From contig JBHGNT010000041.1 of the NCBI GenBank assembly GCA_043228905.1, positions 1-64,000 on the forward strand: DNA of 64,000 nucleotides. The letters run 5' to 3'. Origin of the DNA: Azolla caroliniana. Its lineage: Eukaryota > Plantae > Polypodiophyta. The translations under genes were made by a program, and so were the position numbers. The notes beneath the pieces were generated by a model. It saw nothing but the letters and a program-made list of their open reading frames with translations, was not told the origin of the DNA and did no database searches. Shown in pieces: positions 7,501-64,000 of this stretch (positions are counted from its first letter, which is position 1; every line of letters starts with the position of its first letter).

Positions 7501-7735
7501 CCTTTGCCACATGCACATAGACAAGACAGTCAAACACCCTCACATGTCGGTACGATACGTCTTTGCCACTCCACACCCTTTGTGGGACATCATCACCATC
7601 CAAGGGTACTGAGGGTGATCGATTGATCACATACGCTGTCGTCATCATCGCCTTAGCCCAGAATGTCTTCGATAACTTTGCATGTGCAAGCATACTTCGA
7701 ACCCTCTCTATTACGGTTCGGTTCATTCTCTCGGC

Positions 7736-29228: not shown

Positions 29229-32200
29229 TTAGCATTTATTCAGCATCCCACGACCGAAATATTCGGCTATGACCGAGAATCCATCATCTGAATTCCTCAA
29301 CAACTGGAAGAACCGATCGTGATCATTGGCATTTTGCTCCAAATTATGCTTCATATCGAGCAAAGTGCGATTCGAGGGAGCGCAAATGGGGCACTCCTTC
29401 TCATTATCACCAAGACAACGTTGATGGAATGAATGCATACACAAGAAATGAACAGCGGGAAGATCCAAGGCCGAAGTGCATGCAGAGCATTTGCTTAGTT
29501 GGAAAATCCTTGCATTTGTCCGAAGATCATGGATCTCTTTTCGCATCAAAATAGTTTCTTTCTGCAGACAAAAAGCAAAAACAAAACAATGAAAATATCC
29601 ATAAATGAGCAAAATATAGCAAGACATTCATTAGATGGCACACAATGTGTTAAACATGTTTACCTTTCATAGTCAAACAAGATGTATGGATATAGTTTTG
29701 GTTATAGGTTCCATATGTATGAACTCCTAGTTGTAGTTTCTACTTTTCGGTAACAAAATGAACGTTTTCGTTTCTGTTAAAAAAAGTATGATTGTTCCAA
29801 TACACTGGTCACACATGGAAACAGACCGAATGCATAAGGTTAGAGATAAGGAGGAAAACATCAGTACAACTAATTATAGTGATTGACCATTTGAGCATAT
29901 ACTGTTAATTGCCTGGCTTTCAACATGATTACAAAAGAGAGGAAATGGAGAACAGATATCATTAAAGTGGACAGTGAGGACTTGGATCAATTTAAAAGAT
30001 GACCCATTGTTAAGCCCTTCTCTTTATGTCCCCTAGATGATTTCATTGTTCAACCAAGTATGTGGAGAAAAACACACACCCTTTGCACAATGATAGGTCA
30101 GGTCTAGACATCAGTTCATCAACTGAGGATAAAGACAGGACAATATACAAATATAGCTTTTGTAGAACACATGTCAGCTTTGAAATCAAGAAGTTGAATA
30201 TGAGGAGCATTATGCATGTCTGAAGAGGATATCCTAGTCTCTTTGGAGAAGAATTCGGACCTCTTGGTAGAGTGATTGAACACACTGACAAAGGATGCCT
30301 AGGAACTTTTATTCATGAAAAAAAGAGCCTCTTGAGGAAGAGGGTGACACTCACAGATCCATCTATAACAATAGAAGATTTATGAGAAGTTTCTTCTATA
30401 CGGATATACATACACAAGAACCACCCATCTCCAACAGGTGGTTGTAGCTTCAAGTGAGTGAGGGACATTTTCTATGTCTTGCCTCCAACACCATGGCCCA
30501 TCCATCCGTACCTGAACACAGCCATGTAATAATACAATTAAAGGAGGGCTTCAGAAGCCAGAAATTTCTGTCTGCAGATATCATTGATCAATCACCTCTC
30601 TTGGTGAGTATTGTAGTTACCCATAACTAGATACATCTATTAAAATGTTTATATTTCCCAAAGCTAGATTAAGAAACACATTTCTTTTGTTTTCTCTCTG
30701 ACAAAATGGTCAAGAGATCTCATCCACATATAACCCAAAGAGCATTGGAGAGAGAGTAGGGCCCCCTCTTTCATTACAATGGCGAGTGAAAACCCCTCGA
30801 GGCGCAGGACTCTACACACTACTGTTTGGTAAATAAAATGCATGGAGAAGGCAATGCCAAAAAACATACATAATCAGTACACAGACCATCTTCCTCAAAA
30901 AAACATGGAATACTCTTCCATCGCTATAAATATTTCGAATACCTGATACTTATCAATTGTTTTCTGGTCCTCTTCAATGAATTGTGATATCTGTTGAAAC
31001 TGGCGAGCAATATAGTCTTTCACAACTGTTAATTTCAAAGTTGGGTTTTTGGCAAGCGTCTGCAATACGATAAGAGGAGGAAGCAGATTATCTTTTTCAA
31101 CATACGTAAGAACTTCCTTCACTTCCTTGGAACAGTCTTCTCCCCGTTCCCCGAAATACTGCAGCACATCAGACCAAAGCGAAGAGTCTCCACCCCTACT
31201 AGAATCAGCTAATCTCTTGCAGCAAGAAATAAGTCCCTGATAATCTTTGTCTTGCATATAGCAAGCCATGACATCCTTATAAAGTTTCATTTTTTCATAC
31301 AAAAAGAGAAGACCATCTCTAAACCCATGCATTTCACACAGCACAACTGCCAGATCTTCATCATATCGAGGTTGTTGTTCATGAGGAGGCCATCCACTCT
31401 TAAGCAATGCTAGACCTTTCATACGCCGATCTGCTCGTTCTTCTTTTGACTCTACGAGAAATTCTCCAGCTGCCACTTCTGCTTTACCTTTACTTGTTCT
31501 TTTAGAAAGCAAATCAGTCGAGGAATATCCACCCCTTGATGATACCTTAATATTCAGACTTTTAGACCTGTTCAAACTAGTTTGATTTGTATCTATCTTC
31601 TCCGGTGGTTGTGACAGGCTAGGTGCAGAAATATCTTCAGAAAGATAAAGTTCCAAAAGGGTATTATGTATCTCTACATGGGCTAGAGATTCTTTCACCT
31701 TCGCGATATACTGTTCCAAGAAAAACATCAGCTCTTTAGGCTGGTCAACAAAAATGTGTACAAAATCTACAGGGGATGGGAGATATTCTGGCACACCGTT
31801 GCTGTGTATACTATTTTGCGGTCCATCTCCAACACAAATACCCAATAGTACATCAATAGTTTCTGCCGGTTTATGGCAAACAAGAATTTTCCCATATTGT
31901 TTCAGTCTTAAAGCAGACTCATACAGTGAAAGGCTGGCGATGTATTGAAAAGCTTCGTCGTATCCACCTAAATCCTCAAGCAATATTTTCAAATACCACT
32001 CATGTTCACCAGCTTTTTTTGCAACATACATAGCATGTTGGTGATAACCTGCTGCACGACACACCTTCACAGCTGTCTCTACATCAAACCGAAGCTCCCC
32101 ATCTCCTTTAATGAAGTCATCCAATTTCGCCACAGCTTTAAGTTTCGTAAAACAATTTATCAAGAGAGTTGTATGGTCAGGAGTAGCCAAACCCTTCTCA

Positions 32201-34843
32201 TGAAGCTTCTCTAAATAGTTTGTTAGATTGTGGATTCTCTGTGCATCTAGAAACTTCTGGATCACATATGATGGTTCTAATTGTCCTATTGTCCTGATAT
32301 ATTGGGCCATTGCTTCATCATAATCTTGTTTTCCATATAAATGATCGCCATACTTCCGCAAAACTTCAGCTATTGCTGCCGCATCTTGCTGACTTTGTAC
32401 TAAATTGATTGCAACAGTGTATAAACTCTTCCGGAATAGCAGTTCAAGTTTGCTCTCCATATCCTTTTCTCCTAAATAAATCACACTGTGATCATCCGTA
32501 AGTATTATAATATTACCCCATTCGAACAATACGTGAGCGACCTTTCCAATTGGAAAACTGTATGCAATCAATTTGTTCTTTAAATCATAAATGTTAAAAA
32601 CACTCTTATCTGGTCGTCTCTGGTCTCCTATAACTAACAGAAGATACCCCCTAAACCACCCCACAAAACTTTTCTCTCCTTCAAAAGCCCAGCACGGACC
32701 TCGCCCATCTGCATCGTAAAAATAGACCGCCTCAGGAAGTCCAACCACAAGATCCTGATAGAGAGTATTGTTATAAACAAATTATACATCTTTCTGCAGA
32801 GAATTTCAGAAAAAGAAGTTCAGGAATCAGCATAGATTTCAAACCTGATTGTCATTCATCGCCACACACCCTGTATCGCAACCATGTGGATCGAGAATGA
32901 TCTGGTTTGGGGTCTGTTCATGCATGTTAAACAAAGAGATGCAGTTCGTGGTCACGACAAAAAGCTGGCGTGCTTGACCATCCACTCGGAAACCAAGCCC
33001 TGTTATGGCTGACGCCATTTGACCATCTTTTGAAGAATTAACTACAAGTTTTAGACGTCCCATACCACCACGAGAAACCTCACCCTTTATGCAGTAAACA
33101 ACTCCTGTCTCTAGTCCCAAGCATATAAGCAACATTGGCGGTGCCTCTTCAAATACCAAGAAAGAAGTTATCTGCAGTACAATAACTATGCAATCAAGTG
33201 AAAATGCAGAAGAATTGATATCATTATGATATCCAAGAACCATCTTAAATAAGCAAGCATACCTTTGCTTCAGGATATTTATCGGTGAAGACCTGGAGAG
33301 ATCGAATACATGAAGGCCCAGTCGTGCTTGAGCCCTCCCCAACGGTTTTATCTAAATCAAATATCTTGAGGTAAATTGTGGAGAAAGGAACTGTCTCATC
33401 TTCACCAATTGTTACAAGCATATTTCTTTGCTGCAGAAAGGCATTAAAAGTCATCCAACCAAGACATTGTAAAGGTACATAATCACAATCCTATAATATG
33501 CATTAACTCTATATATCGAAACATAAGCATATGACTCACAGGACCAGAAAAATGTCCACTTAAGAGTGTACACAAATGCAAAAACAAACATATGTTATAT
33601 ATTAAAACCATAGATCATTAGATTCTACAAGTACATGTAGGTAGAGCCCAGAAAGTGGCGGCAGCGATGAAAGGAGCATGGTATCCCAAAAATGCTAGGA
33701 CTCAGCTAGTGTGAAAGTCCCAACTTTTTGGGGATAGCATGCTCCTTATAGACTTCATTTAGACAGAGAGCTCGGGTTCCACATGAATTTCTCATAATCA
33801 TTACTATATCTCTGAGACTCCTGGCTAAATTATACCATTTATATTGAAGCTCAATAAAACCTGCATCATCTTGATTTTTGGAGAGCCAAAGAAATTAATT
33901 ACCATCCTTTCGCAAGAGGAAGCATAGCAAGATATTGACTCACACTCTTTAAATCTAGAGAACATACTACCTACAAGAAGACGCATAAAGCACAGTAATG
34001 TCCATATGATTCTGATTTGGAATAACATGCTTCCAGTTTCAGAAAAGTATCTCCCATCTGCACATAACAATCTTACAACCATACCTAATGAACAGTGGTT
34101 TCTACATGAAAAAAAGCATACATCCATATCAGTGTACACATGATTCCCTATGTTTGAAAACAAGGTCTTGCCTTATTGTATTATATCTATCACTTTCAAT
34201 GCAAGGAACAATGTGATATCACATAATCATTGTGTTGGAGTCTTCCTAGAAAGCAAGGATTGTCTTCTTATAACATGTTACATACAAAAGTCTCTATCTT
34301 AGAAATAATGGCTTGTCTCAGAGTATCTTATCTAATTCTTTTACTCAAACACTAACCAATCATGCTTGGATCTGGATCCAACTACAAACATACATATATA
34401 TGTATAACTTAAACCAACAAACACACACAGATACACACATACATATATACACACACGGATATATACATACAACATAAAGATGTGTGTGTGTGTATATATA
34501 TATATATAACATATGCACATCTATACAATGTGCCAGAAACAAATTGAAAATTGGATCAATGGAAAAAGACATATTTTTCTCTATACATAAATAAACAAAT
34601 TTAGGAGAGAGTTCAGGCGAAGTGGACCTTGAGATGCTGAATGTGATGGACATGACTGGAATGAGCCAGAAAAGAGTGCGAAAGCTTAAGGTTCCGATCG
34701 AGGACATGAACGAGACCATTGCCTCTCTGCGCAACAAGAAGCTGACCCCGCCCACTCGTGCTGCAAACGATGTCCCCTCGAAGCTCCTCAGCACAAGACG
34801 TAGGCTTCTCCTCAAAGAACTGGAATTTCCTCCATTGATACAT
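29229..34843 (-). CDS. VPS11: Vacuolar protein sorting 11 (HOPS/CORVET core subunit), 5 exons, about 951 aa
   Basis: GT-AG exons with consistent phase: 34843-34628, 33430-33263, 33171-32845, 32754-30943, 29561-29229. Starts MYQWRKFQFFEE, has a clathrin-repeat region (KYGDHLYGKQDYDEAMAQY) and a C-terminal RING (CSACTSALDLPAVHFLCMHSFHQRC..CPIC). Confidence 0.95.
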
Positions 34844-48356: not shown

Positions 48357-50891
48357 CTATCCACAATCTATACATTGGAATGACCATGTTTTAGATGTTT
48401 TCCATGCACCCTTTTCTTCTCTCAAGGCATCGATCTTCTCCACCTCCTCTTTCATCCCACATGTGGCATAAAGATTACTTAGACAAACATAAGCAGTTGC
48501 ATCCATCACATCGATTTGAAGTGCATGTTCAAAGGCAAACCTTGCTACCTTCACATTTCCCCATTTTTGGCACGCACCCAAAACACTGTGCCATATTGAC
48601 ATGTTAGCAACGTATGGCATCTGTTTTATTATTGAAATTACTTTGTCCAAGTGTCCTGCACGCCCAAAAAGATCAATCATACAAGCATGGTGCTCTAAAG
48701 TCGGCATTATGCCATAAACTTCGCTAATAGATTCAAAGTATACTTCACCCTTGTCAAGTAAACCTGAATGGCTACATAAATTGAGTAAAATTGTAAATGT
48801 CGCCAAATCTGGTATCTTCCCTTCATTTACCAAATTTCCAACTAGTTTAAATACCATGTATTCCTTTCCGAGCTGACTAAATCCCGAAATTAATGAAGTC
48901 CACGAAACTACATCCCGAACATTCATTTTGTCAAAAACTTCTGTTGCTTCCATTAGCATCCCACAGCTCCCATACATGTCGATCAATGCGTTATCAACGA
49001 CGATATCAACTTCTAACAACCCATCCTTTACCATCTCAGCATGTATTTCTTGGCCCTTATGCAAAGCTCCAACGCAGCCGCAGCTTTTCAACACACAAGC
49101 AAGGGTAACTGCATCTGGAGAAATGTCATCGAAACGCATTCTTTCAAAAAGATGAAGTGCTTCTTGAGCATACCCATGTTGGACGCATCCAGCAATAATT
49201 GCACCCCAAGTAATAACATCACGAACCTGAAGATTGTCGAAAACTTCCCTCGCTTCCAGTAGTGCACCACATTTTCCATACATATCAATCAATGCATTGC
49301 TGAGAGCAGTGTCATTTGCTAATATCCCCCGTCTGATAATCTCGGCATGTATTTCTTGTCCCTTAGACAAGCCTTCTATTCTGCCACATGCTTTCAAAAT
49401 GCAAGAGAATGTGCTTTCGTTTGGTTCATAGCCCTTGTGTTGCATCTGCTCAAAACACTTATATGCCTGCTCAGTCTCACCATTTTGAACGTAACCTGAT
49501 ATGAGTGCATTCCATGAGACGACATCTCTTACTGACAAATTGCCAAAGACTTCTTGCGCTTTTGCAAGTGCACCACATTTCCCATACATATCCAACAATG
49601 CATTTCCGACCATGACATCTTTTTCTAGCAACCCATCTCTTATTACCTCTAAATGTATTTCTTGGCCCTTATCTAAGATTCCTTGATTTCCACAAGCTTT
49701 CAAGATACTAGCAAAGGTAACTGCATTTGGAGACACACCTTCACGCTTCATTTGTTCAAAACAATCAATCGCCTCCGTGTCATATCCAAATTGTGTGTAT
49801 CCTGCTATAAGTGCACTCCATGAAACCACATCTCGAAATGGAAGCTGATCAAACACTTCTTGAGCTTTTTCCAGAAGACCACATTTCCCATACATATCTA
49901 TTAAGGCAGTGCCAAGCACTATATCTTTCTTCAAAAACCCTTCACTCGCAATCTTTGCATGTATCTCTTGGCCTGTATAAGACGCTCCGATGCTCCCACA
50001 AGCTTTCAACACACTAACAAAAGTGATAGCATTCGGAGATACACCTTCACGTTGCATTTGTTCAAAATGCTTCAGTGCCTCTACACCATTCCCATGTTGA
50101 GCATACGCTGTAATGATAGCACTCCAAGAGACAACATCTCGAACTGAAAGTTTGTCAAATATCTCTTGAGATTTACCAAGAAGACCACATTTAGCATACA
50201 TATCCACCAATGCAGTGCCAACCATAGGATTGTTAACAAGCATATTACCCTCTCCGACAACCGCTGCATGTATTTCTTGGCCCTTATCTGCTGCTTTTAT
50301 GATTCCACAAGCTTTCAAGGCACAAAGATACGTGACGATATCAGGGCACATGCCCTCGCATAGCATTCTTCCAAAATATTTCAATGCCTCTTCACCATAC
50401 CCATGTTGGGTATATCCTGTAATGATTGCATTCCAAGAGATTCCATTACGAAACCGGAAATATTCAAATACTTCTTGTGCATTTAGGAGCGCGCCACACT
50501 TGGCATACATACTAATCAAAGAACTACAAATATAAACATTTTTTTCGAGCAAGCCCTGCTCAGCAAGATCCCGATGTATTCTACTTCCCCTATGCAAATC
50601 TTTCTGCTTTGCACATACCTTCAATAAAGCAATGAAATGACTATCCTCATCACATTTCTCATAGTTACAGCTGTTGCTAAGAAGAAATGCCTGTTGCTCC
50701 TCTTCCTTCTTGTGGAAATCTTCTCTTGTTGTGTAATTTACTTTTTTCCTCGTTGTCATCTTCAGCTCCTGAAAATCACTGCTAATGCTGTGTTTGAAAG
50801 GGGAGTTTTTCTGCTGTGAGAAATAACAAGGGAATGCATGAGCAGGTAAGGAATCGCTTATGAAACTGGTAATTCCACATTGGACACCCAT
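48357..50891 (-). CDS. PLS-class pentatricopeptide repeat protein, E subgroup (no DYW); probable organellar RNA editing factor
   Basis: Intronless 844-aa ORF with repeated ALIDMYGKCG..A.EVFD...RDVVSW and P.AVTF...LKACG triplets, plus E motifs (HHACMIDLFGRAG, WHSVLGAC, YVCLSNLY). There is no HSE/CxxC deaminase. Confidence 0.93.
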   Translation of the reverse strand: MGVQCGITSFISDSLPAHAFPCYFSQQKNSPFKHSISSDFQELKMTTRKKVNYTTREDFHKKEEEQQAFLLSNSCNYEKCDEDSHFIALLKVCAKQKDLHRGSRIHRDLAEQGLLEKNVYICSSLISMYAKCGALLNAQEVFEYFRFRNGISWNAIITGYTQHGYGEEALKYFGRMLCEGMCPDIVTYLCALKACGIIKAADKGQEIHAAVVGEGNMLVNNPMVGTALVDMYAKCGLLGKSQEIFDKLSVRDVVSWSAIITAYAQHGNGVEALKHFEQMQREGVSPNAITFVSVLKACGSIGASYTGQEIHAKIASEGFLKKDIVLGTALIDMYGKCGLLEKAQEVFDQLPFRDVVSWSALIAGYTQFGYDTEAIDCFEQMKREGVSPNAVTFASILKACGNQGILDKGQEIHLEVIRDGLLEKDVMVGNALLDMYGKCGALAKAQEVFGNLSVRDVVSWNALISGYVQNGETEQAYKCFEQMQHKGYEPNESTFSCILKACGRIEGLSKGQEIHAEIIRRGILANDTALSNALIDMYGKCGALLEAREVFDNLQVRDVITWGAIIAGCVQHGYAQEALHLFERMRFDDISPDAVTLACVLKSCGCVGALHKGQEIHAEMVKDGLLEVDIVVDNALIDMYGSCGMLMEATEVFDKMNVRDVVSWTSLISGFSQLGKEYMVFKLVGNLVNEGKIPDLATFTILLNLCSHSGLLDKGEVYFESISEVYGIMPTLEHHACMIDLFGRAGHLDKVISIIKQMPYVANMSIWHSVLGACQKWGNVKVARFAFEHALQIDVMDATAYVCLSNLYATCGMKEEVEKIDALREEKGAWKTSKTWSFQCIDCG

Positions 50892-51512
50892 TCAGCAAAT
50901 TCTTGCACGATTTTTCGGTCGATCTTATGCCATTTTGATCGATATCAAGCAATCCTTCAGTCGATCACTTGCGATTCTCGTACAGGGGAGGGGTTACACA
51001 GTTTCCAATCGAACTTACGATATTTCTCAACATTTTTTAGTCTTCTACATGCTTCTCTTACTTCTGCTCTAATTCCTCCATCGCCCACACATCATCATCC
51101 TTCATGATTTTCCTCCCTGCTTCCCTTTGGCCTCAGCTACACCTGTGTTTCCATAGCCAAGGCCTTCATCTTTCTTCTCTCCTTCTTCTTTTCCTTCTTC
51201 TTTCCACGGCTAATTCTTGGAAGAAGATTAGAGAAAGATATGGGGATTATATCATGAATCTTCTCTCCTTCTCCTTCTTTTTCTTCTTCTTTCCATGGCT
51301 AATTCTTGGAAGAAGATTAGAGAAAGACATCAATTGGGGATGGATTATATCATGAATAAATTTAGCTCTTGAAGCGAAAGAAGATCAAAGAAGGAGACAT
51401 AGTGTGAACGCGTCCGCTTTACACACACCGATGATGGCCGCTACTTCTCTTCACCGAAAAGACAAAGTCCCTATAGGCCCGAGGGGATCGATTCTGGCAT
51501 AGTAAAGTGGGA

Positions 51513-51585
51513 GTCGGCCTAGCTCAGATGGTAGAGTGTAAGGCTCTTAAACTTCTGGTCATGGGTTCGAGCCCCATGGCCGATG
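51513..51585 (+). tRNA. tRNA-Lys(CTT), probable pseudogene (one of the two best-preserved units; the second is 51619-51691)
   Basis: The 73-nt cloverleaf has paired acceptor, D and T stems and intact A/B boxes. The anticodon stem has two mismatches and no oligo-T terminator follows. Confidence 0.55.
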
Positions 51586-53471
51586 TTGCTGGATCGATTC
51601 TGGCATAGTAAAGTGCGAATCGGCCAAGCTCAGATGGTAGAGCATAAGGCTCTTAAACTTTTGGTCATGGGTTCGAGCCCCATGGCCGACGTTGCTTACC
51701 ATGCAAGATTTTCATGAAACTCTAGATACATGGAAGTACATAATAACCACGTCATCAAAGTCCACATGGCCAACCTAGTTTAGATGGTAGAGGGCAAAGT
51801 TCTTAACCTTATGGTCATGGGTTTGTGCCCCATGGCTGGCGTGCTTGCCATATAAGATGTTCATGGAACTCTAGATCCATGAAAGTACTTAACAATTACA
51901 TTGTCAAGTCGACACAGGCATTTCTTGCCACATAAAAATGTGTATTGAACTCTACATGTCAGATTGGTATTATTGGCCATGCAAAAAACACACTCTACAT
52001 GCTTGACATGCACTCCTTGCCACGTAAAATGTTCAGTATGTGAAAGGCTTTTTGTTATCTAGCTGGCCTAGCTTAGATGGTAGAGCACAAGGCTCTTAAC
52101 ATTGTGGTTATGGGTTTGAGCCCCATGGTTGGCGTTTCTTACCATGTAAACTATTAATTGAATTGTAAAACAATAGAGTATTTAACAAACATGTCAGCAT
52201 AAGCTCAATACCCCTGTCTAAAGAGCATTTCTTGCTTGCCACATAAAGTGTATATCAAACTTTGCATCTTCGAACATTTCTTGCCACATAAAATGTATAA
52301 CATGCCTGACATGCATTGCGTGCCACGTAAAATGTTTATGGCACTCTAGGTAGATAGAAGTATGTCGTCAAGCCCGCCTAGCTCATATGATAGAGCGCAA
52401 GGCTCTTAATGTTGTGGTCATGAGTTTAAGCCCCATGGCTAGCGTTGCTTACAATGTAAGATGTTCATGAAACTCTAGATACATGAAAGTACATAATAAG
52501 CACATTATCAAGTTCACATGGCTAGCCTAGTTTAGATGGTAGAGGGCAAGGCTCTTAACCGTATGGTCATGGGTTCTAGCCCCCTATCTCATATGCTAGA
52601 GCGCAAGGCTCTTAACCTTCTGGTTAGGGGTTTGAGCCCCATGGCCGGTGTCTCTTACCACGTAAAATGTTCATTGAATTGTAGATCAATGAAAGTATTT
52701 AACAAACATGTCAGGCTAGCTTAAATGGTAGAACCTCATGGTTGGCATTGTTTCCCATGTAAAATCTTCATGGAACTCTAGATTCATAAAGGAACATAAC
52801 AAACATGTCAGCATAGGCTCAATACCCATGTTTGAAGAGCGTTTCTTGCCACATATAATGTATATCGAACTCTACATGTGGGAAGGGCATTTTTGGCCAC
52901 ATAAGATGATTTTGGAACTCTACATGCTTGATATGCATTGTTAGCCCTGGTTGAAGGGAGAATATGAACAAACAAAAGAAAAAGAAAGATATATTGAAAT
53001 GGTGGAGTTTTATCTGAGAATTAGTCTTGACGTAACAAGTATTAGGAGGAGATAAAGATACACCTGTAATACTAGGAACGTGGAAGCTTTTTTCTTATCG
53101 AGGAAGATGGGTTTGTTTTTAAATATACCACATATTTTTATCTAGATAGACCTTTCTCTGACTATTCATTGCGGAATTACATGCGTTGACCAACCTTGTT
53201 AATTAAGCTTGGATTATTGCTCGGTGAAAACAATGTTTATGGCACTCTAGGTAGATGAAATACGCAAACAAGCATGTTGTCAAGCCGTCCTAGCTCAGAT
53301 GGTAGAATGCAAGGATCTTAACCTTGTGGTCCTGGGTTCAAGCCCCACGGTTGGAGTTGCTTAGAATGCAAGATGTTCATGAAACCCTAGATACATGAAA
53401 GTTTATAATAACCACGTCACCAAGTCCAAAAACAGGGCCAACCTAGTTTAGATGGTAGAGGGTGGCTAGTG
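51513..53471 (+). repeat. Tandem array of about 10 degenerate tRNA-Lys(CTT)-derived units with shared spacers
   Basis: Units at 51513, 51619, 51769, 52062, 52372, 52521, about 52584, about 52714 (internally deleted), 53284 and 53437 (internally deleted). The consensus GCCGGCCTAGCTCAGATGGTAGAGCGCAAGGCTCTTAACCTTGTGGTCATGGGTTCGAGCCCCATGGCTGGCG closely resembles plant tRNA-Lys-CTT. Confidence 0.88.
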
Positions 53472-53490: not shown

Positions 53491-55197
53491 TGTTGGCATA
53501 AAAGCCTGACTCCTTCCAATTTGTATTCGGCTTAGTATTCGGCTTAGTGTGAACTCGTCCACATAGTTAAGGCTTAGTATATAAGCAATAACCTGACGTT
53601 GTAGAGAAGAGATAGATATATACACATTGTATCAAGGCTCTGAGAGAGAGAGAGAACGTAATAAAGCTTTCCATTAAAGCTCATTTCTGTGTAAGTCTCC
53701 GCCTTCCTCCCCTTCTGTGTTGTTTTCCGACATACGCAAACAGGTTCTCATACGCTTCCGCATATGCACACACACCTACCAAACTTTCTACAACTGGTAT
53801 CAGAGCATCCTTGCTATTCGGCAGCAATAACCTGACGTTGTAGAGAAGAGATAGATATATACACATTGTATCAAGGCTCTGAGAGAGAGAGAGAACGTAA
53901 TAAAGCTTTCCATTAAAGCTCATTTCTGTGTAAGTCTCCGCCTTCCTCCCCTTCTGTGTTGTTTTCCGACATACGCAAACAGGTTCTCATACGCTTCCGC
54001 ATATGCACACACACCTACCAAACTTTCTACAACTGGTATCAGAGCATCCTTGCTATTCGGCAACAGACAACAGAAGAAGCTCAAAAGAAAAGATGAGGTC
54101 AGTAAAAATCTCAGTTTTCATAGAAGAATATGGCTTCAACATCCGGAACATGAGTTGAAATCAGAATGTTCGATGGTAAAAATTTTGCACTCTGGAAGGA
54201 GATGATGTAGGATGTTCTGATCATCAGAAGACAAGTCAAAACTATTCGACACAACGAAAAACCCGCTTCGATGACAGTCGAAGAGTGGAAATCGATGGAT
54301 GAAATTGCACGCTCCACCATCCGAATGCATTTGGCCGAAAACGTCTACTTCAGCATGGCAAAAGAGACTACAACGTTCTCACTATGGGAGAAGTTACAAG
54401 TTGTGTATGAGAAGAAGTCCTCATCTTCGAAACTGATTTTGATCAAACAACTTTTCAACATAAAGATGAGAGAAACCGATTCAACTACCTCCCACATCAA
54501 CACCTTCAGCCGGGTCTTGTCAGAATTCTCCTCACAAGGGATCAACTTCGAAGAAGAAGTGAAAGCCCTTGCCCTCCTATCCAGCTTGCCGGCGAGTTGG
54601 GAGGTATTCTGCACGACATACGCCAATAGTCGACTGATCCTAAATCTGGATGAGACGATCGGCCAAGTCCTCACTGAGGACATTCGGCGAAAATTGATGG
54701 GACTTGCCATTGATGAATCGGTAGAAGCCCATCACTCGACTGAATCGTTCGACCGATAGAGTCGTATGAGAGAACAAGCCGACAAAATCGTTCGGAATAC
54801 CAACCGATCAAAAACGAGGGGAGACCGACAACGATTGAAGTCGAGAACGGGCCGATTAGGCGAATTCTGCACACATTGCAGAAAAGCAGGGCACAATGTT
54901 TTTCCAACTCTTGGTCAATCAAGAGGAAAGAGAATGGTCGCCGATCTGAGTGAAATTGAGGTAGACCCGATTCAGACCACTCTCCAGCTGGCAACCAAAT
55001 CAACGTTGTCGACTCTCCATCGGGAGAAATTCTCTCCTTAGAGGACTCTATGATCGGGGAAGTCCTCTATAGTGCACAAGAAGCACACACGTGGTTACTG
55101 GATTCCAGTGCCACATTTCACGTGACCCCAAACATAGAAGGTTTTAGAACTATTTGGCCGACACCAGCGACACAGTCAGTCTGGGAAACGAGTAGGA
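53491..55197 (+). mobile_element. Degenerate Ty1/copia element D (5' LTR, PBS, gag, start of protease)
   Basis: LTR at 53491-53792 (tgttgg..ctaca), PBS tggtatcagagc at 53795-53806, gag FDGKNFALWK/ARSTIRMHL and WLLDSSATFH. It is interrupted at 55198. Confidence 0.85.
53584..54061 (+). repeat. 239-bp tandem duplication of the LTR 3' part plus PBS
   Basis: 53584-53822 matches 53823-54061, giving a second PBS at 54034-54045. Confidence 0.9.
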
Positions 55198-58100
55198 TGT
55201 TAACTCTTAGGGCCGGACAATGGCCTAACACAGGGTGTCTACGGAAGACACTTCACCAAAGGGGTGTTACGGCAAGAGGATTAGGCTCAACGATTAATTC
55301 GACTTAATTAGGTTACTTAGCAAGATCGTCCTTAATAATCACACGCGTAAGATATAACAATGAATGCAGAACGGCAATTAACACAGAGAGATAAAACGCT
55401 AAGCTTCATTAATTATCCGCTCCACATTACATTGTATCCGGGCCTTTAAATAGGTTTCCGATTTGTAGTACAAAACAGTGCCATCCGCACCTGTTCGGGA
55501 TCGGTCCGGATCCGGAACGACATACCGATTCCGGTCCGTCCGTCCACACTAATAGCTCACTTACAACCATTCCTTAGTAATTAAATAACTCCTTCGTTTC
55601 ACACTCTGGTCTCCTTTGCCGGCCGGTAACACATGGCACGCCCGTGGGACAGTACCTTGTACGTCGAATCCACCATCCGACCCTTGCTATTCTTCATCCA
55701 AAATATCCAGAATGCTTTGTTCGAGAGTCTCCAATGGTTCATCTGGAATTGGTTGTTGTTGTGGTTGTTGTTGTTGTTGTTGCTGCTCCGTTGATGGCTC
55801 TTGCGACTGGTCCGTTGGTGGCTGCTGCGGCTGCTCCTCCGTTTGTTGCTCTGACACCGACGTTACCGTCGTTGCTCCCTCTGTCGTAGTGGTCTCTGGT
55901 TGACTGGTTCCGGCTTGGCCCTCGTCCGACGACGGTTGCTCATCACTAAGGTTAACCGTTGCCGCTTCCCGTGCTTTTTCTTCCCGAACCCGGGACCACT
56001 CGTAGCTCTCAAACTGGATTTGAGCGTCCAGCCTATCATCGTCTAGCTGAGCTACGAGTTGCCGGACGTGCACCAGCTGTTCATCCGCCAGGACTTGGAA
56101 GTCTTCGGCCAGCTCATCCCGTATGGCGGTGAAGTCCTCGGAAGTCAACGTGTAACAATCATCTCCTTCCTTCCGCCGATTTTCCACGTCTGCCCGTAGC
56201 AATTGGAGTTCCGTCGTATTTTGTGCCCACTTTGTCCACCATCTTATGGAGCTTTCGTCAATCAAGCGTTTTGTCTGATTCAGCCATGCCCGGAGGATGC
56301 ACTGAATCCGGCCCGTTCCCATCTGCGATTTGATCTCCGCAGCTTGCCGTTCCTCCTTCAATTGCTTGATGATTTTGATGTTGTCATCCGCCTGCTCCTT
56401 GTAATGCGTCAATTACCCTTGATATGTGCTTTGTAATTTTTGCAATACCGTTGACGCTCTCTCCCTTTCTTCCTGCTGCTGCCTTTGGAGCTCCATCCGG
56501 ACCTTCTCCGCCTCGTCCAACCGTCTTGTATTTTCCGCTCGTTCGTCGGCGAGCGCCGTTGCGGCCCGATCAACTTCCTGCCGGAGCTCGACCATCCGTT
56601 CCTTATGCTCCGTTTCCAGCCGTTTGTAGTCCCGGTGCAGGTGCTCAAAATCATCTGTCTTTTCCTTGAGCCGTACGTTGATCTGTCGACGGGCCCGGTC
56701 CTCGCGGTCCTTCTGCTGGTGGAGCTCCTCGTTTAGCCGTTCAATTTCCGTTTCCGCCGTCTTCCGCAACTTGTCCTTTTCCTACAGCACTTTGTCTTTT
56801 TCCTCCCTTAGCCGGTCGTAAGCTTGATGGCCTTTCCGAAGGCTCTCCTCTGCCCGGCGGAGGTTCTCAGCAGTCTTCTTTAATTCTGCTTCGGCTGCTG
56901 TCTTCTATTCCTGTTCACGGCTCCTTAGCGCTTCTTGTGCGGCAAGTTCATCTCTCAATTCCGCAAGCTCCTGGGCTTGCACCGCATCTCTCTCTGGAAC
57001 GGTTTCCGTTGCCGGGGTCTTATTAGTATGTATAGGTTGGTCTGTTTCTTTATTCTGTACACTTACCGGAGTCACCGGTGCTTGGATCTGTGTTGCCGTT
57101 AAGGCCATTTTAGCCATTTCTGCCGTGACCTGATCCAAGTCTTTTTCAAGGCACCGGATTCTGGATTGGGCCGTCTCTAGTTGTTCGGTTGTGACGAGCA
57201 ACCGTTCGCTTTGCGTTCTTTCTTCCGCCTCAATATACCCCATTGCTCCGGCAATCTGTTCGCCTATCCACCGGAGCCACAGGCTACCGGTGCATTGTTG
57301 TTGCGCTTGCACGGAGGTTTGACGGATGGGCTCGCTTGTGGGTGGGTGGTCCCGCCTGATTGCGCCGAGTTGCAATTCCGTTTCTGCCCGTGGACCACCC
57401 AACTGTCCTGGTTCCCCTTGCGCTTCTTCTTGGTTGGCCGAGGGAGGCTGCATTGACCTTTCCGGCTCTGGCGGAACGGGACTTGCCAGTGGTGCCGGTG
57501 GTGTAGGGGCTTCTGATTCCGGTGCCATGCGCACCGGTTCCGGTTCCTCCCTTGGCGTGGGAGTCTCAGTATGGGGAGCCGATGTTCCCTCCGTTTGAGG
57601 GTCTGAACGTTTCCCGGCTGCCTCAACAGTCCTTGCCGATGACCGTCGCTGGAGGTGCTCCGTAGGCTCCTCCTCTATTTCCTCTTCCTGAGTCTCGGCA
57701 TTGAGTTTCGCCGCCAAGGGGTCCACTTCTCTATTCACCGGTCGGCGGAGTGTAATCTTTACGGGCCGTACCGGTGGTTCCACTTGCGCATCTGTTGGCC
57801 GCTTCCGGCTGGCGCTCTCCTTTCCCGCTTGTTCTGCGTCCGCTGCCTTCCCCTTAGTGGCCTTAGAGGCCAACAACTGTTGTCTTTTGGAAGCAGTCTT
57901 TGGGGTGCCGTCCGCCACTCTTCCCCGCTTCTTGGGCTGGACGGGCTGGACGGGTGGCACAAGCAAGGTGAGCCACTGCGTTACTGCGTGCCATATCTTC
58001 CGTCCGTCTCGGCCTTCTTTGCCGTCTTTTCCTCTGACGATCTCGATCGCCGCACACAAACCGTCTGCGATCAATACCGGCCAATCCACCTTGATCCCTT

Positions 58101-58774
58101 CATAGGTGGCGATGATCATCCCTGCCCGGTTCTGCGGCATGACAGGGGGTCTAGGGTACACATGGCCGTATTCGTGGAGCACACGGGCAATCTCGCGGAA
58201 CAACATATCTCCGCCGCCCTGTGTCTGGTAGCCCTTGCTGCCTAGGGAGTACTCACCAAAATACTTGATGAGTTGCTCCGAGGTCAGATTGTCGATCGTG
58301 AATATGCCTCCCTCCGGACAGTCTGTTAACGCACGGATCACCTCCTCCGTTATGACCTCTGTGTCGATTTCTTTGATCACCTTGTCGGCTTCTTTGTGTG
58401 GCGGTGCCTCCATAATCGTCAAGATGCCCTCGAGCTCGTGTTGCTTTAGCCATTTCTTGGCGGCTTCCGACAGCGTTTGCGGGTCCATGTCTGTGTCGAG
58501 GTCGGATTGTGGTGGTGAGGTTGGATGGTGATGAGAGTGAGAGTGAGAGTGAGAGAGAGAGAGTTCAGAAAGCGGGGGTTCTCTGCGCGTAGGTTCTCGT
58601 CTGATGATATTCCAACGCCTTGGTGCTTCTGTGCTCCTGGGTTCGCGAAATGAGAAGGTCTCCATGCGCTGTGGTTTTTCTTTGTGCATTCTGGCACCTT
58701 TTTCGAGCGTGTGCATGTCGTGTGCTAAAATAGTATTATGTCCTATGGCGGCGCTTAAATGCCCACTACGTACC
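55198..58774. mobile_element. Non-chromovirus gypsy-type element: LTR, tRNA-Arg PBS-like site and a large extra ORF
   Basis: LTR at 55198-55631 (tgttaac...ggtaaca), followed after 2 nt by tggcacgcccgtgggac (55634-55650). It is inserted in the copia D protease. Confidence 0.75.
55687..58716 (-). pseudogene. About 1000-codon retrotransposon extra ORF (globular N-terminus, Pro-rich linker, long coiled coil) with 3 in-frame stops
   Basis: ORFs 58716-56905, 56769-56413 and 56412-55687 share one frame, with stops at 56905, 56782 and 56413. It has a GIKVDWPVLIA motif and an E/K/R/Q-rich heptad region. Confidence 0.75.
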
Positions 58775-61700
58775 TGTTGAGAACTCGACGTTCCTTATGT
58801 TCGACGCTCAGCCACAACCGAGATTCTTTTCATACACAGAAAAACAGGTAATGAAACGCGACACAAAAGGGGAGAAATGGTACACAGGAGGTTTACGTGG
58901 AAAACCCCAAAATAGGGGAAAAACCACGGCAGCCCACAGGCTGCAAACTGTCACTATGTAGGAATATACAACAGTGAGTTCACTGAGGCAACGACCTCGT
59001 GCTCTCAGATCTTCGCCACAGGCGGCAATTACAACGGAGGCAACGACCTCGTCTCTCTCTCTCTCTCTCTCTCTGTACAGTTACGCCCTCTCGCTTCTTC
59101 TTGCACCAACAAGGAAGAATAACAACAACAAAAAAAAACACACCTAAAAGTTTGCCCTAAGTCATATTTATACTAATATGACTTTTCGGCTATTTACAAA
59201 TGTAGCCTCGATGGGCTCTCAGAAACATATTTACGAATATCTCTCTTCCTCCGGTTCATACCGGGCCTACACCATCCGGCTCTTCGTAGTCGGGTACTCC
59301 CCATCCGGTTCATACCGGGCCCACACCATCCGGCTCTCCGCAGTCGGGTACTCCTCATCCGGTTCATACCGGGCCTACACCATCCGGCTCTCCGCAGTCG
59401 GGTACTCCTCATCCGGTTCATACCGGTTCGGCCTCGGCCTGTCGGCACTGTTCTTCTCCCTTCCCATCCGGAGGGACCTGTCTCCCAACAAACTCCCCCT
59501 TCACTCCGGCATGGGGTGTCTTTCCAGCCCGATCCTCTTCCGGCATGCGTCCAGCTTGTCGGGTGTCAACACTTTGGTCAGCATATCTGACCCGTTCTCG
59601 GCCGTGTGGATCTTCGTCAGTGCGAACTCCTGGTCATCTACCCTTTCCCGGATCCAGTGATACCTCCGTTGGATATGCTTCGTCCGGGAATGGTAGGCCG
59701 CATTCTTAGCAAGGTGGATGGCACTTTGACTGTCGCAGTAGAGTCGGTATTCCTCTTGCCGGATACCGAGCTCTCCGATGAAGTCCTTCATCCATAATAT
59801 TTCCTTGCCGGCTTCTACAGCCGCCATGTACTCCGCCTCTATGGTTGACAATGCAACCGTCTTCTGCAGCCTCGACTGCCACGAAACAGCTCCCCCTGCA
59901 TATGTCATCACATACCCGGATGTAGACCGGCTGGTATCCACATCAGCTGACATGTCCGAATCTGTGAAACCGTCCAGTTGAGGTTTCCCGGAGCCGAATC
60001 GGAGACACATATTTGAAGTGCCCTTCAAATATCGGAGTATCCATTTGACCGCGTTCCAATGCTCCTTGCCGGGATTACTCATGAACCGACTCACCACTCC
60101 GACTGCGTATCCAATGTCCGGTCGGGTACAAACCATTGCGTACATCAAGCTCCCGACGGCAGAGGCATATGGAATCTTCATCATATCTTCCTTCTCTCCT
60201 TTTGTCTTCGGGCTTTGCTTGCCGGACAACTTGCAGTTTGCCGGAAGTGTCGATCCGACCGGTTTTGCATCTGACATGTTGAACCGGTGAAGCACCTTTG
60301 TCACATACTTCTCCTGTGACAGCCATAATTGCTTCACTGACCGGTCCCGAATGATGTGCATCCCCAACATCCGTCTTGCCGGACCCAAGTCTTTCATTGA
60401 GAAGGTCCGGTTGAGAGCCTTCTTCAGCATCCGTATTTTGCCTTGGTCTCGTCCGACGATCAACATGTCATCCACGTACAGGAGAAGTATCAGGAAGTCC
60501 CCTCCTTCGAACTTCTTCACGAACACGCAGTGATCGGCCTGCGTCTTATGGTACCCTTGATCGGTCATGAAGGAGTCGAACTTCCGGTACCATTGCCGGG
60601 GAGCCTGCTTAAGTCCGTACAGGCTCTTCTTCAACCGGCATACCAGGTGCTCCTTCCCTTTCTCCACAAATCCTTCCGATTGCTGCATGTAGATTTCCTC
60701 TTCGAGGTCGCCGTGAAGGAATGCCATCTTCATGTCCAGCTACTCTACCTCGAGATCCATGCTTGCTGCTATACTCAGCACCGTCCGGATGGAGGTCATC
60801 TTTACTACTGGGGCGAATATTTCGTCGAAGTCCACACCCTTCTTCTACTGGAACCCCTTCACCACGATCCTGGCTTTGTATCTCGGGGGGTTGCCGGCAT
60901 CTCCTGGTTTCAACTTGAACACCCACTTGTTTCGGAGTGCCCACTTTCCTTTCGGCAGCTCCACCAATTCGTACGTATGGTTCTCATGCAGGGAATCCAT
61001 CTCATCCTGCATGGCACTTAACCATTTTCGGCTATGGGTGTCTTCCTTCGCTTCTTCGAAGCTTTCCGGCTCCCCCTCATCGGTCAGCAGGACATGCTCT
61101 GCATCTGGAAATCTCCGAGGCGCCCTTCTCTCTCTGAGAGGATATCTACGTCTTCGGGCTTCGGTAACCGGTTCCTCCATTTGCTCTTCATCCGAATCCG
61201 ATTCGAGGTCTTGACCGGTTCCGGTCTCAGCTTCCTCTACTTCTTCTTCTGCCGGTTCGGTATCCTCACCGTAACCGGCTGGTTCCTTGAGTGCTAACCG
61301 GTCTCTTGCCGGTTGGGTCTGCTCATTGTAGAGTCTATCCTTACCGGTCGACTCGGAGTTCATTACCTTCTTCTCCGACTCCCAGTCGGCGAGCGTCTTG
61401 TCCTCCATGAAGATAATATCTCGACTCCGGAATACCTTCTTGTCGACCGGGTCCCACACTCGGTAGCCGAACTCATCGTCACCGTAACCGAGGAATATGC
61501 ATGGCCGGGTCTTTGGATCTAACTTTCCTCTCCGGTCCTTTGCTACATGCGCGTACGCGAGACACCCGAACACCCTCAGATGCCGGTAGGACACTTCCTT
61601 ACCGGTCCATACTCTCTGTGGCGTGTCTCCGTCCAAGGGCACTGAGGGTGATCTGTTTATCACATATGTCGCCGTCGACAGTGCCTCAGCCCAAAACTTC

Positions 61701-63557
61701 TTGGGTAGTTTTGCATGCGCTAGCATACTCCGAACCCTCTCCATTATGGTCCGGTTCATCCTCTCGGCCAGTCCGTTTAGTTCCGGCGTCTTCGGCACGG
61801 TAAATTCGAGCTGGATTCCCTTCGAGCGGCAGTACTCCTCGAACTGCCCCCGGTACTCACCTCCGTTATCTGCTCGAACCGCCTTCAGCTTCCGGCCGGT
61901 TTCTCTTTCCACTCTCGCGTGGAGCTCTTTGAAGACTAATAACACCTGATCCTTCGTCTTCAGCGGTGTGTCCCACAGCTTCCGGCTGTGGTCATCTATG
62001 AACGTCACGAAGTACTGCGCTCCGACATGTGACTTCGTGTCTACTTGACAAACATCCGTATGCACCAACTCCAGTGGTGCATTACGTCTCATCGGTGGCC
62101 TTGGTCGGAAGGAGGTCCGGTTCTGCTTACCGGCCAGACAATCAGTGCACTTCTCTAAGTGCACGTTCTTCACTGGAATGAGGTTGTCGTCTCCAAGCCT
62201 CTTCATCCCCTTCTCACTCATGTGACATAGCCTCTTGTGCCACAGCTCACCGGTAGTGTCGGAAGCCACGTTCACTTCTTCCGGACATAACCGGGCATTC
62301 ATCAGGTACAGTGTGTTTACCTTCCGGGCCCGAGCCACAATCAGGCTCCCTTTGCTGAACTTCATGACACCGTTCCGGATGCTACCCGTGTAGCCTTCAT
62401 CATCCAGCCGACCGGCTGATATCAGGTTCAGACGAACTTCCGGAACGTGTCGGACATCCTTCAACAGCAACTTGCATCCGGTTGGTGTTGTCAGCCACAC
62501 ATCTCCTATGCCGACAATTCGGCATGTTCCTTCATTCCCCATCCGGACACAGCCGTGATCACCGGCTGAGTAGGATGAGAAGCATTTCCGGTCCGGGGTA
62601 AGGTGGAACGACGCTCCGGAGTCTACCACCCAGGTCATCTCGTCGCCGGCATGGTTTATCTCACTCTCCTCGGTGATGAGCATCAACTCCTCTTCACTTG
62701 CCGCAATTGCCGTCGTTCCCTTCCGGTCCGGCCCCCTCCGGGCTTTACCGTTCCGGTTCGGGGTTTGCTTCGAATCGGTACCGTCGGTTTCCTTGTCTTT
62801 ACGGAAATGCCGACAGTTCTTTTGGAAGTGTCCCGGCTTGCCGCAATAGAAGCAAGTAGGCCTCCCCCTTGACTTTGACCGTGTCCCCGACTTCTCCCGG
62901 TTTTGGGGACTACGGTTTCTATGTCTTCCGCGTTCTGATTCGGTAAGGAGCGCTTTGGAGTCGGAGCTCGTATCTTTGTCTTTCCGACGAGCCTCCTCAT
63001 CTAGCAAGCTCGACTTTACTCTTGCTAGGGATAACCGTTTTCCTTCCGGCCCGGCGTTGCCCAAAGTGACAACCAACGTCTCCCAACTATCCGGGAGGGA
63101 ACCGAGCAGGAGTAGTGCTAGGACCTCATCGGCAAGAGGTACTTCCAATGACGTTGCCTGGTGAATCAGCCCTTGGAAGGCATTCATATGCTCCGCCATG
63201 CTGGAGCCATCTTGGTACCGGAGTCTTACTAGCTTCCGGAATACCGACACCTGATTGACAGCATTTTTGTTCTGGAACATTATGCCGATCTTCTCCCAGA
63301 GCTCCTGAGACTTGCTCTCTTCATTGAAGTTGTTGTACAGGCTCATGTCGATGAAGCACCGTATGTACGCCGTTGTCTTCATGTGCATCACCTCCCATAT
63401 CGCAGCGTCGATTTTGTCCGGTCTCTTGTCCCCGAACTGAACCGGCAGCCAGAGGTCTTTAACCACGAGCATGTCCCTCATCTTCGACTTCCACACTGAA
63501 TAGTTGGAGCCGGTGAGCTTGAAAATGCCACCAAACGATTCGTCCATTTTCTGTGTC
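58775..63557 (-). mobile_element. Ty1/copia element E, lacking its 5' LTR and PBS
   Basis: 3' LTR at 58775-59490 plus PPT. Gag-pol at 63547-59501 is nearly intact, with stops at about 60845 and 60740. Non-LTR sequence lies directly upstream of the ATG context acacagaaaatg. Confidence 0.92.
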
Positions 63558-63626
63558 GATTTTGATTTCGCTTTTGCATGATTACTTCGCTTTTTTAAAA
63601 ATAAATAAATAAATTGTAGTGTGAGG

Positions 63627-64000
63627 TTACTTGTCCGTTGGTCCTATCGGACCCTTACCGGCCTCATTACGGTTTGCCGTTGCCTCATTCTCCCCCGTTT
63701 CCGCACCGGTTCCCAATCCGGTGTCGGTCCTTTGCTCAAATGGGTTCTTGGGCATCGGTCCTCTATATGGCTTCAATCTGAATCCGTTGACCCATTTGCC
63801 TAGCACTTCGCCGGCAAGTGTCCCTAACTGGTAGGACCCATTATACTCACGTGTCAGCCAATACAGGCCGGTCCATCTAAACCGTAGTTTACTCGGCATC
63901 TTGCCCATCCAGGTCTGAAATACTAACACCGGCTTGCCGATTTCGAACATTTTTTCATTTCCTTTCTGGTGCCGGTCGACAAATGCTTTCCGTCACCGTT
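63627..64000 (-). CDS. Ty3/gypsy integrase C-terminal (GPY/F) domain, partial
   Basis: FEIGKPVLVF..KLRFRWTGLYW...GSYQLGTLAGEVLGKWVNGFRLKPY; no chromodomain. Confidence 0.8.

Follow-up and report, generated by a model that had tools for sequence, protein, structure and literature searches.

Priming of the second DNA strand from a polypurine tract (PPT) is described, in the available part of PMC5371799, as common to retroviruses and to those retrotransposons that have long terminal repeats (LTRs); the same part describes split primer-binding sites (PBSs) in Ty1 and Ty3, which pair with the acceptor stem and T-arm of a tRNA. In HIV-1, according to the available part of PMC5618025, failed primer removal leaves the PPT at U3 and the tRNA at U5 in 2-LTR junctions and circles. 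The subject of this report is a retrotransposon of the fern Azolla caroliniana that begins in a stretch of 64,000 nucleotides (the window, bases 1-64000 of contig C41) and extends past its end. The LTR in question is the 3′ LTR of one minus-strand, non-chromovirus Ty3/gypsy element occupying contig 55198-73273 and carrying two nested insertions. This element has no PPT; a site for tRNA-Arg(TCT) stands in its place and, as judged from sequence comparisons, likely primes the second (plus) strand. Both DNA strands would then likely be started by host tRNAs, and elements of this kind, with a tRNA site at either inner end (dual-site elements), likely represent a new priming route in an otherwise known kind of element. 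The literature searched, with subscription papers and Repbase entries outside its coverage, contained no description of a tRNA-primed second strand. If true, a high-copy lineage in which a second tRNA replaces the PPT breaks the rule stated above, a reverse transcriptase (RT) is able to initiate on a tRNA/DNA hybrid despite this being an expected target of its own RNase H, and short defined substrates become available for testing primer choice and removal; such an element may also be doubly exposed to tRNA supply and tRNA fragments. Annotation tools based on PBS and PPT would turn dual-site elements round.

On the minus strand, the 434-bp LTR (55198..55631, TG..CA) has its U3 end at 55631 and is separated by a 2-nt spacer (55632..55633) from the tRNA 3′ end of the proposed second-strand primer site, which consists of three parts on the same strand. 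Part 1 (55634..55650), at the PPT position, corresponds to the last 18 nt of tRNA-Arg(TCT) including CCA, minus one base; part 2 (55651..55663) is a hairpin of 4 bp that interrupts the match between tRNA positions 58 and 59; in part 3 (55664..55673), the match is to the T-arm and T-loop of the tRNA, on their 5′ side. An earlier note on this DNA had given the LTR, the spacer and a 17-nt site at these coordinates, all of which were reproduced, and had proposed a one-gap match to plant tRNA-Arg(TCT). That match was borne out by the host tRNA-Arg(TCT) genes (L062, L066, L067 and L069), which agree with 55634-55650 in 17/18 bases with one gap; it is not limited to this stretch, however, but continues across the hairpin to 55673. 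The host tRNAs came from an Rfam search covering part of the set, 30 loci of 62 matches, in which other tRNAs were not individually excluded. The 17-nt site occurred once in the window and in 0/100 shuffles. The absence of a PPT before the LTR on the minus strand was likewise upheld, as purines made up 9/20 bases and the longest purine run within 100 nt was 6. Purine-rich stretches before the LTRs of L092, L098 and L108 were weighed as PPT candidates and rejected because they adjoin U5-type ends.

The last 30 nt of the tRNA are predicted to pair over about 27 bp around the hairpin, with RNA energies used as a proxy. In an alignment of 23 sequences from several families, in which related rows inflate the statistic, 95.7% of the hairpin cells were paired and 14 had changed on both sides, as against 0/500 shuffles, and the hairpin position scored best among slid controls. 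The exact gapped site was present in 2620 copies across the genome, compared with 0 for the reversed control, and was found in no host tRNA. All gapped sites in the fetched DNA (38/38) adjoined a U3 end, with the hairpin recognised by pattern in 36. The spacer was 2 nt in 10/10 copies of the window family and 2-5 nt across families. At hairpin sites captured beside U5, the letters read as perfect tRNA 18-mers in 7/7 cases; therefore, the site can take tRNA-Arg(TCT).

The coding strand was settled by related copies. A 503-base query gave 3411 candidates in the 523 Mb of genome searched, of which the 40 that were scored were 95-100% identical; 10 regions were mapped and both LTRs were complete in 6, some of these two-LTR copies having deletions or insertions. 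In the six, the minus-strand order was 5′ LTR, 7-nt spacer, PBS, gag-pol parts, extra open reading frame (ORF), tRNA-like site, 2 nt and 3′ LTR, with gag-pol and the extra ORF on the same strand throughout. The integrase at 63627-64000, which the earlier note had seen on the minus strand, belongs to the same element as the LTR, and the minus-strand ORF of about 1000 codons that it had seen 37 nt from the site corresponds to 55687..58794 (1036 codons, with three in-frame stops in the window's copy), lying 3′ of pol and in the same sense as gag-pol. In two uninterrupted sister copies, gag-pol formed a single frame of 1955 and 1952 aa, the extra ORF ran in the same direction over 993 and 979 aa, and antisense frames did not exceed 261 aa. 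These results refute one of the three interpretations first offered, in which the element would be on the plus strand and a large antisense ORF would separate PBS from gag. Retand elements commonly have antisense ORFs, although located 3′ of pol in the available part of PMC11963269; with gag-pol lying on the minus strand both in this element and in every mapped copy, this interpretation has a negligible probability. At 15 further sites, drawn from the first part of the genome-wide list, sense pol or ORF sequence lay upstream in 13, no coding match was found in 2, and gag starting behind the site was found in 0.

The first-strand PBS lies on the coding strand after the 5′ LTR and, in 4/6 two-LTR copies of the window family, shows a 13-nt match to host tRNA-Arg(TCG), being cut short in one. 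In other families, the 5′ PBS matches tRNA-Arg(TCT) over 13-14 nt, so that Arg(TCT) sites are present at both ends. One strand thus carries the TATA-like box (at LTR position 180, minus strand, in agreement with the initial view that the LTR reads best on minus), the PBS, gag-pol and the extra ORF. The site beside U3 is of the Arg(TCT) type regardless of the type of the 5′ PBS, which argues against pairing between the RNA ends. That the site has some other job, such as RNA end pairing, self-priming with the 5′ PBS, packaging or acting as a decoy for tRNA fragments, with the plus strand started from an unrecognised purine stretch or at random, is very unlikely. Where the PBS is also of the Arg(TCT) type, the 3′ site is complementary to it; yet in the window family the Arg(TCG) PBS can pair with the 3′ site over no more than 4-5 bases and the site is kept, and U3 has a sharply defined end, at 2 nt from CCA in 10/10 copies, so that a primer ending there would be needed.

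The polarity of copying was considered from the occurrence of perfect tRNA 18-mers ending in CCA, of which 55 were found in the genome and 54 examined, with C16:18.06 Mb left out. The usual match at the inner 5′ PBS is only 13-14 nt; perfect 18-mers were present there, before gag, at 17/49 sites examined (16 contexts, one a tandem LTR away), but at a hairpin site adjoining U3 in 0/54. This asymmetry of overwriting suggests that the coding-strand RNA is likely copied first, starting at the 5′ PBS, and the hairpin site used second. In the opposite polarity, the copied RNA would be antisense to gag-pol; first-strand priming would fall to the Arg(TCT) site and second-strand priming to the Arg(TCG) site, and tRNAs would still start both strands. 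The 2-nt spacer and the 17-nt match do resemble a classic PBS, two chimeras with target site duplications (TSDs) have pol antisense to their LTRs (L090 and L153, see below), and footprints outside U3, such as those described next, are also expected if antisense RNA were copied. However, the TATA-like box and a normal PBS are on the coding strand, and the site that can be overwritten with tRNA letters, as expected of a first-strand site, is the 5′ PBS and not the hairpin site adjoining U3. The antisense polarity, also raised in the earlier note, is therefore distinctly unlikely for autonomous copies.

Among the 18-mers, 9 sites at 6 loci adjoined a U3 end without a hairpin, and a wider pattern added L285 as a seventh locus; across the seven, 18-64 nt of tRNA including CCA were joined to the U3 end of an LTR. 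At C2:12.01 Mb, 57 nt of tRNA-Arg(TCT) lie outside the 5′ LTR, an Arg(TCG) PBS and gag come after this LTR, and the inner 3′ site has the usual gapped form; the three copies there represent one tandemly amplified event. L088, a non-autonomous element, has the same layout, with 56 nt of tRNA outside the 5′ LTR. At both loci the first-strand PBS is of the tRNA-Arg(TCG) type; therefore, the copied tRNA cannot have served as first-strand primer. In L162, 18 nt from another isodecoder precede the 5′ LTR; L159 has two junctions of the order U5, spacer, 18 nt of tRNA and U3, and belongs to a family in which inner site and tRNA disagree at several bases; the solo LTR L149 carries 18 nt of tRNA; L091 is a chimera counted among the six loci; and L285, also a solo LTR, carries 64 nt at the end judged to be U3 from motif order. 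Four further loci (L068, L108, L152 and L156) were dropped as U3 footprints because their LTR end is of the U5 type. The 18-nt copies end just before A58, and five loci end at 56-57 nt. A58 is methylated in tRNA, which causes stops and misreading. Among independent long copies, position 58 was mismatched in 6/19 (5 T, 1 G; L088 among them), versus 24/978 at other positions; gene-like loci retained A at this position in 7/7 cases.

All retained pieces at U3 ends consisted of tRNA letters, including bases absent from the element. This bears on the possibility that the element's own RNA, with its hairpin and tRNA-like tail, withstands RNase H and starts the plus strand in cis as a PPT would, its binding of tRNA being accidental. 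The hairpin can form in RNA as in DNA, no host tRNA shows the gapped form in which the site is conserved, and footprints are rare, all of which would suit a cis primer. Nevertheless, a search for short remnants that carry the element's gapped letters and have foreign DNA upstream gave 0/3, all matches being mutated inner sites; furthermore, the match tracks three separate parts of the tRNA, and the purine content of 9/20 is low for such a primer. A cis primer is thus considered unlikely.

Copies of tRNA were also observed at other positions. At L273 (G000:C1:14.81 Mb), a complete 76-nt tRNA-Arg(TCT) copy with CCA adjoins a U5 end; this copy is a reverse-transcribed tRNA delivered by the element. 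L078 (G000:C597:1-600) is an inverted junction with two LTR ends around a tRNA-Arg(TCG) copy, and similar 36-nt copies were seen in L075 and L076.

Taken together, conservation, covariation and the tRNA footprints at U3 ends support second-strand priming by tRNA-Arg(TCT) at the site beside U3, which the earlier note had listed as a third interpretation, a minus-strand element using a tRNA instead of a PPT. That note had named a PBS on the gag-pol strand together with a normal PPT as the finding that would count against this interpretation; the former was found, the latter was absent. In the proposed mechanism, the transcript of the strand with the TATA-like box, PBS, gag-pol and extra ORF would serve as genomic RNA, and the 5′ PBS tRNA would prime the minus strand as usual. 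RNase H, whose D-E-D-D residues are kept in the element, would bare the minus DNA; tRNA-Arg(TCT) would then anneal to the three-part site over about 27 bp around the 4-bp DNA hairpin, with its CCA end placed 2-5 nt before U3, and be extended. Normally the tRNA would be removed; if kept, it would be copied into the minus strand and the copy would integrate outside the 5′ LTR.

It is fairly probable that the whole clade has dropped the PPT and has both strands primed by host tRNAs, with a DNA template and a three-way junction at tRNA position 58 in the case of the second strand, and that an internal region, because both of its inner ends are tRNA sites, can become trapped in inverted orientation between foreign LTRs without losing the ability to be copied. 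Two chimeras, L090/L135 (G000:C3:8.087-8.095 Mb) and L153 (C13:7.71-7.72 Mb), have TSDs, near-identical LTRs and a captured pol antisense to the foreign LTRs, an arrangement that a two-tRNA design would allow. One inner end of L090 has a tRNA copy of about 56 nt with seven hairpin bases spliced in.

In an RT tree of 57 rows, from which L243 was excluded as too short, the 10/10 labelled dual-site rows formed one clade (support 100/100) among fern and liverwort non-chromovirus elements and apart from the chromoviruses. The nearest named relatives were from Riccia, Adiantum and Marchantia, with 45-50% identity. The clade grouped with the fern and liverwort rows rather than with seed-plant Athila-like rows, these labels being taken from PBS type or source names; Athila reference sequences were absent from the tree. 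A sister lineage in the host, sharing 47-48% RT identity, had a tRNA-Asp-type PBS and a G-rich PPT in 3/6 fetched copies, the other 3 giving no LTR pair; PPTs were also present in Athila-, Ogre- or other gypsy contigs (L200, L197, L219 and L249). Since the dual-site clade is single and the sister lineage and other gypsy contigs keep a PPT, the PPT was likely lost once in the dual-site lineage. In metagenomes, 80 loci were kept of 519 relatives, and only L169 had both inner ends of the dual-site clade, with 93% RT identity; its host is possibly the same as, or near, that of the genome. Among viral contigs, one distant gypsy locus was found and none matched the site pattern. Several non-autonomous families (L088, L076, L092, L148 and L308) carry both tRNA sites and no pol match, and therefore likely ride on the dual-site machinery.

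Several observations weigh against priming of the second strand by a tRNA, or limit what was found for it. Footprints are rare, 7 loci versus 2620 sites; they show that a tRNA can be joined to U3, which is not proof of a routine route. The U3 and U5 labels of the non-autonomous L088, L149 and L091 and of L285 come from LTR homology and motif order. In the A58 comparison, 17/19 long copies were at U5 ends or left unassigned by the script, and the p-value of 9e-6 is too small because the search pattern left position 58 free and restricted its neighbours, biasing the background downwards. The test for a cis primer applied to retained pieces no longer than about 17 nt. The 5′ PBS of the window's own copy matches tRNA-Arg(TCG) in 12/13 bases, with one mismatch. 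In the tree, rows L083, L084 and L113 were labelled by family and not from both ends of the copy itself, and row L153 carries a captured pol. The evidence base is one genome plus one metagenome contig (L169). Finally, a tRNA/DNA hybrid should be a substrate of RNase H; speculatively, the gap and the hairpin may shield it.

The rest of the element and its surroundings were as follows. The domain order between the two LTRs was GAG, zinc knuckle, protease, RT, RNase H and integrase, with a TSD, as is the case for gypsy elements; comparison of the 1952-aa polyprotein with Pfam at E<=1 gave no chromodomain and no additional RNase H (aRH) in the element. The Tat/Ogre type assigned in the earlier note is thus incorrect. 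Of the TSD proposed there, the left copy (55193..55197, unstranded) has a right copy at contig 73274-73278 which, differing by one base, matches in 4/5 positions; other copies of the family had perfect 5-bp TSDs in four cases and 4/5 in one more. The 3′ LTR and the 5′ LTR (contig 72840-73273) are identical in 420/434 positions. Within the element, the minus-strand region 58775..63567 is a nested Ty1/copia element, overlooked earlier and separate from the gypsy element; it has a single LTR (58775-~59493) and gag-pol (59501-63643) and lacks the second LTR and the PBS. The gypsy element resumes on the minus strand at 63568..64000 with the integrase C-terminus (63627-64000) and continues past the window with pol, gag, the tRNA-Arg(TCG) PBS and the 5′ LTR up to contig base 73273, interrupted by a second nested LTR element at contig 67679-71437. 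The insertion target was an older copia element on the plus strand (54030..55197, gag at 54211-54759), which continues past contig 73278. The extra ORF gave no Pfam family at E<=1; it had 5 unnamed homologues, and atlas matches <0.9 (unnamed plant clusters, Transposase_32 and ATHILA ORF1) serve as leads only. Every mapped dual-site autonomous family keeps an extra ORF of about 1000 aa, pieces of which are 26-90% identical; its long C-terminal half resembles a coiled coil.

Elsewhere in the window, a chromovirus-type gypsy element with a chromodomain and two LTRs (7735-13294) served as an outgroup; 51485-53430 is an array of degenerate tRNA-like repeats, with 8 copies of 74 nt and longer shared flanks, and several tandem tRNA arrays were present in the genome; 3682-3866 is a degenerate telomere-like tandem repeat with a 14-nt period; and the host genes were those for a PPR protein with an E motif and a VPS11-like ORF (48357-50891 and 30895-32781).

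Varied degrees of resemblance were shared by the element with described systems, each source being cited here for its available part. With Ty3 it shares a 5′ PBS for a tRNA, an RT with RNase H, integrase, LTRs, TSD and a second primer directly before U3, but Ty3 obtains that primer by cutting a purine tract out of its RNA, and the Ty3 split PBS is on the RNA strand and uses one tRNA for the first strand, whereas the split site here is on the opposite strand, at the PPT position, and would use a second tRNA (PMC5371799). With Athila it shares the lack of a chromodomain and aRH, a 5-bp TSD, a single gag-pol ORF, an extra ORF 3′ of pol and a spacer of several bases before the PBS, but the Athila PBS is mostly for tRNA-Asp (72%), also Asn or Ala, instead of tRNA-Arg(TCG) or (TCT) (PMC6317226); moreover, an Athila contig mapped for comparison has a PPT and the window element does not, and RT identity between Athila and the dual-site clade is about 40-45%. 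On these sequence features, the element appears to fit Athila only in part. Tat, Ogre and Retand elements have a tRNA-Arg PBS and an extra ORF after pol, as found here (PMC6317226; PMC11963269), but are defined by aRH (PMC6317226), which this element lacks while keeping the RNase H catalytic residues; here, in addition, the extra ORF is sense and the RT forms a separate branch, and Ogre contigs keep a PPT. Phygy and Selgy have a 4-bp TSD, a PBS for tRNA-Trp or tRNA-Ala and no extra ORF (PMC6317226), compared with the 5-bp TSD, tRNA-Arg and ORF of about 1000 aa found here. The terminal repeat retrotransposons in miniature (TRIMs) of the Helenus group also contain tRNA-derived sequence in an LTR element, but there it forms a promoter within the LTR, the elements have a PPT, and involvement in priming is ruled out by the author (PMC10886601). 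The footprints are analogous to the HIV-1 junctions in that primer letters are left at the DNA end that the primer started, the remnant at U3 being the PPT in HIV-1 (PMC5618025) and tRNA in the dual-site elements.

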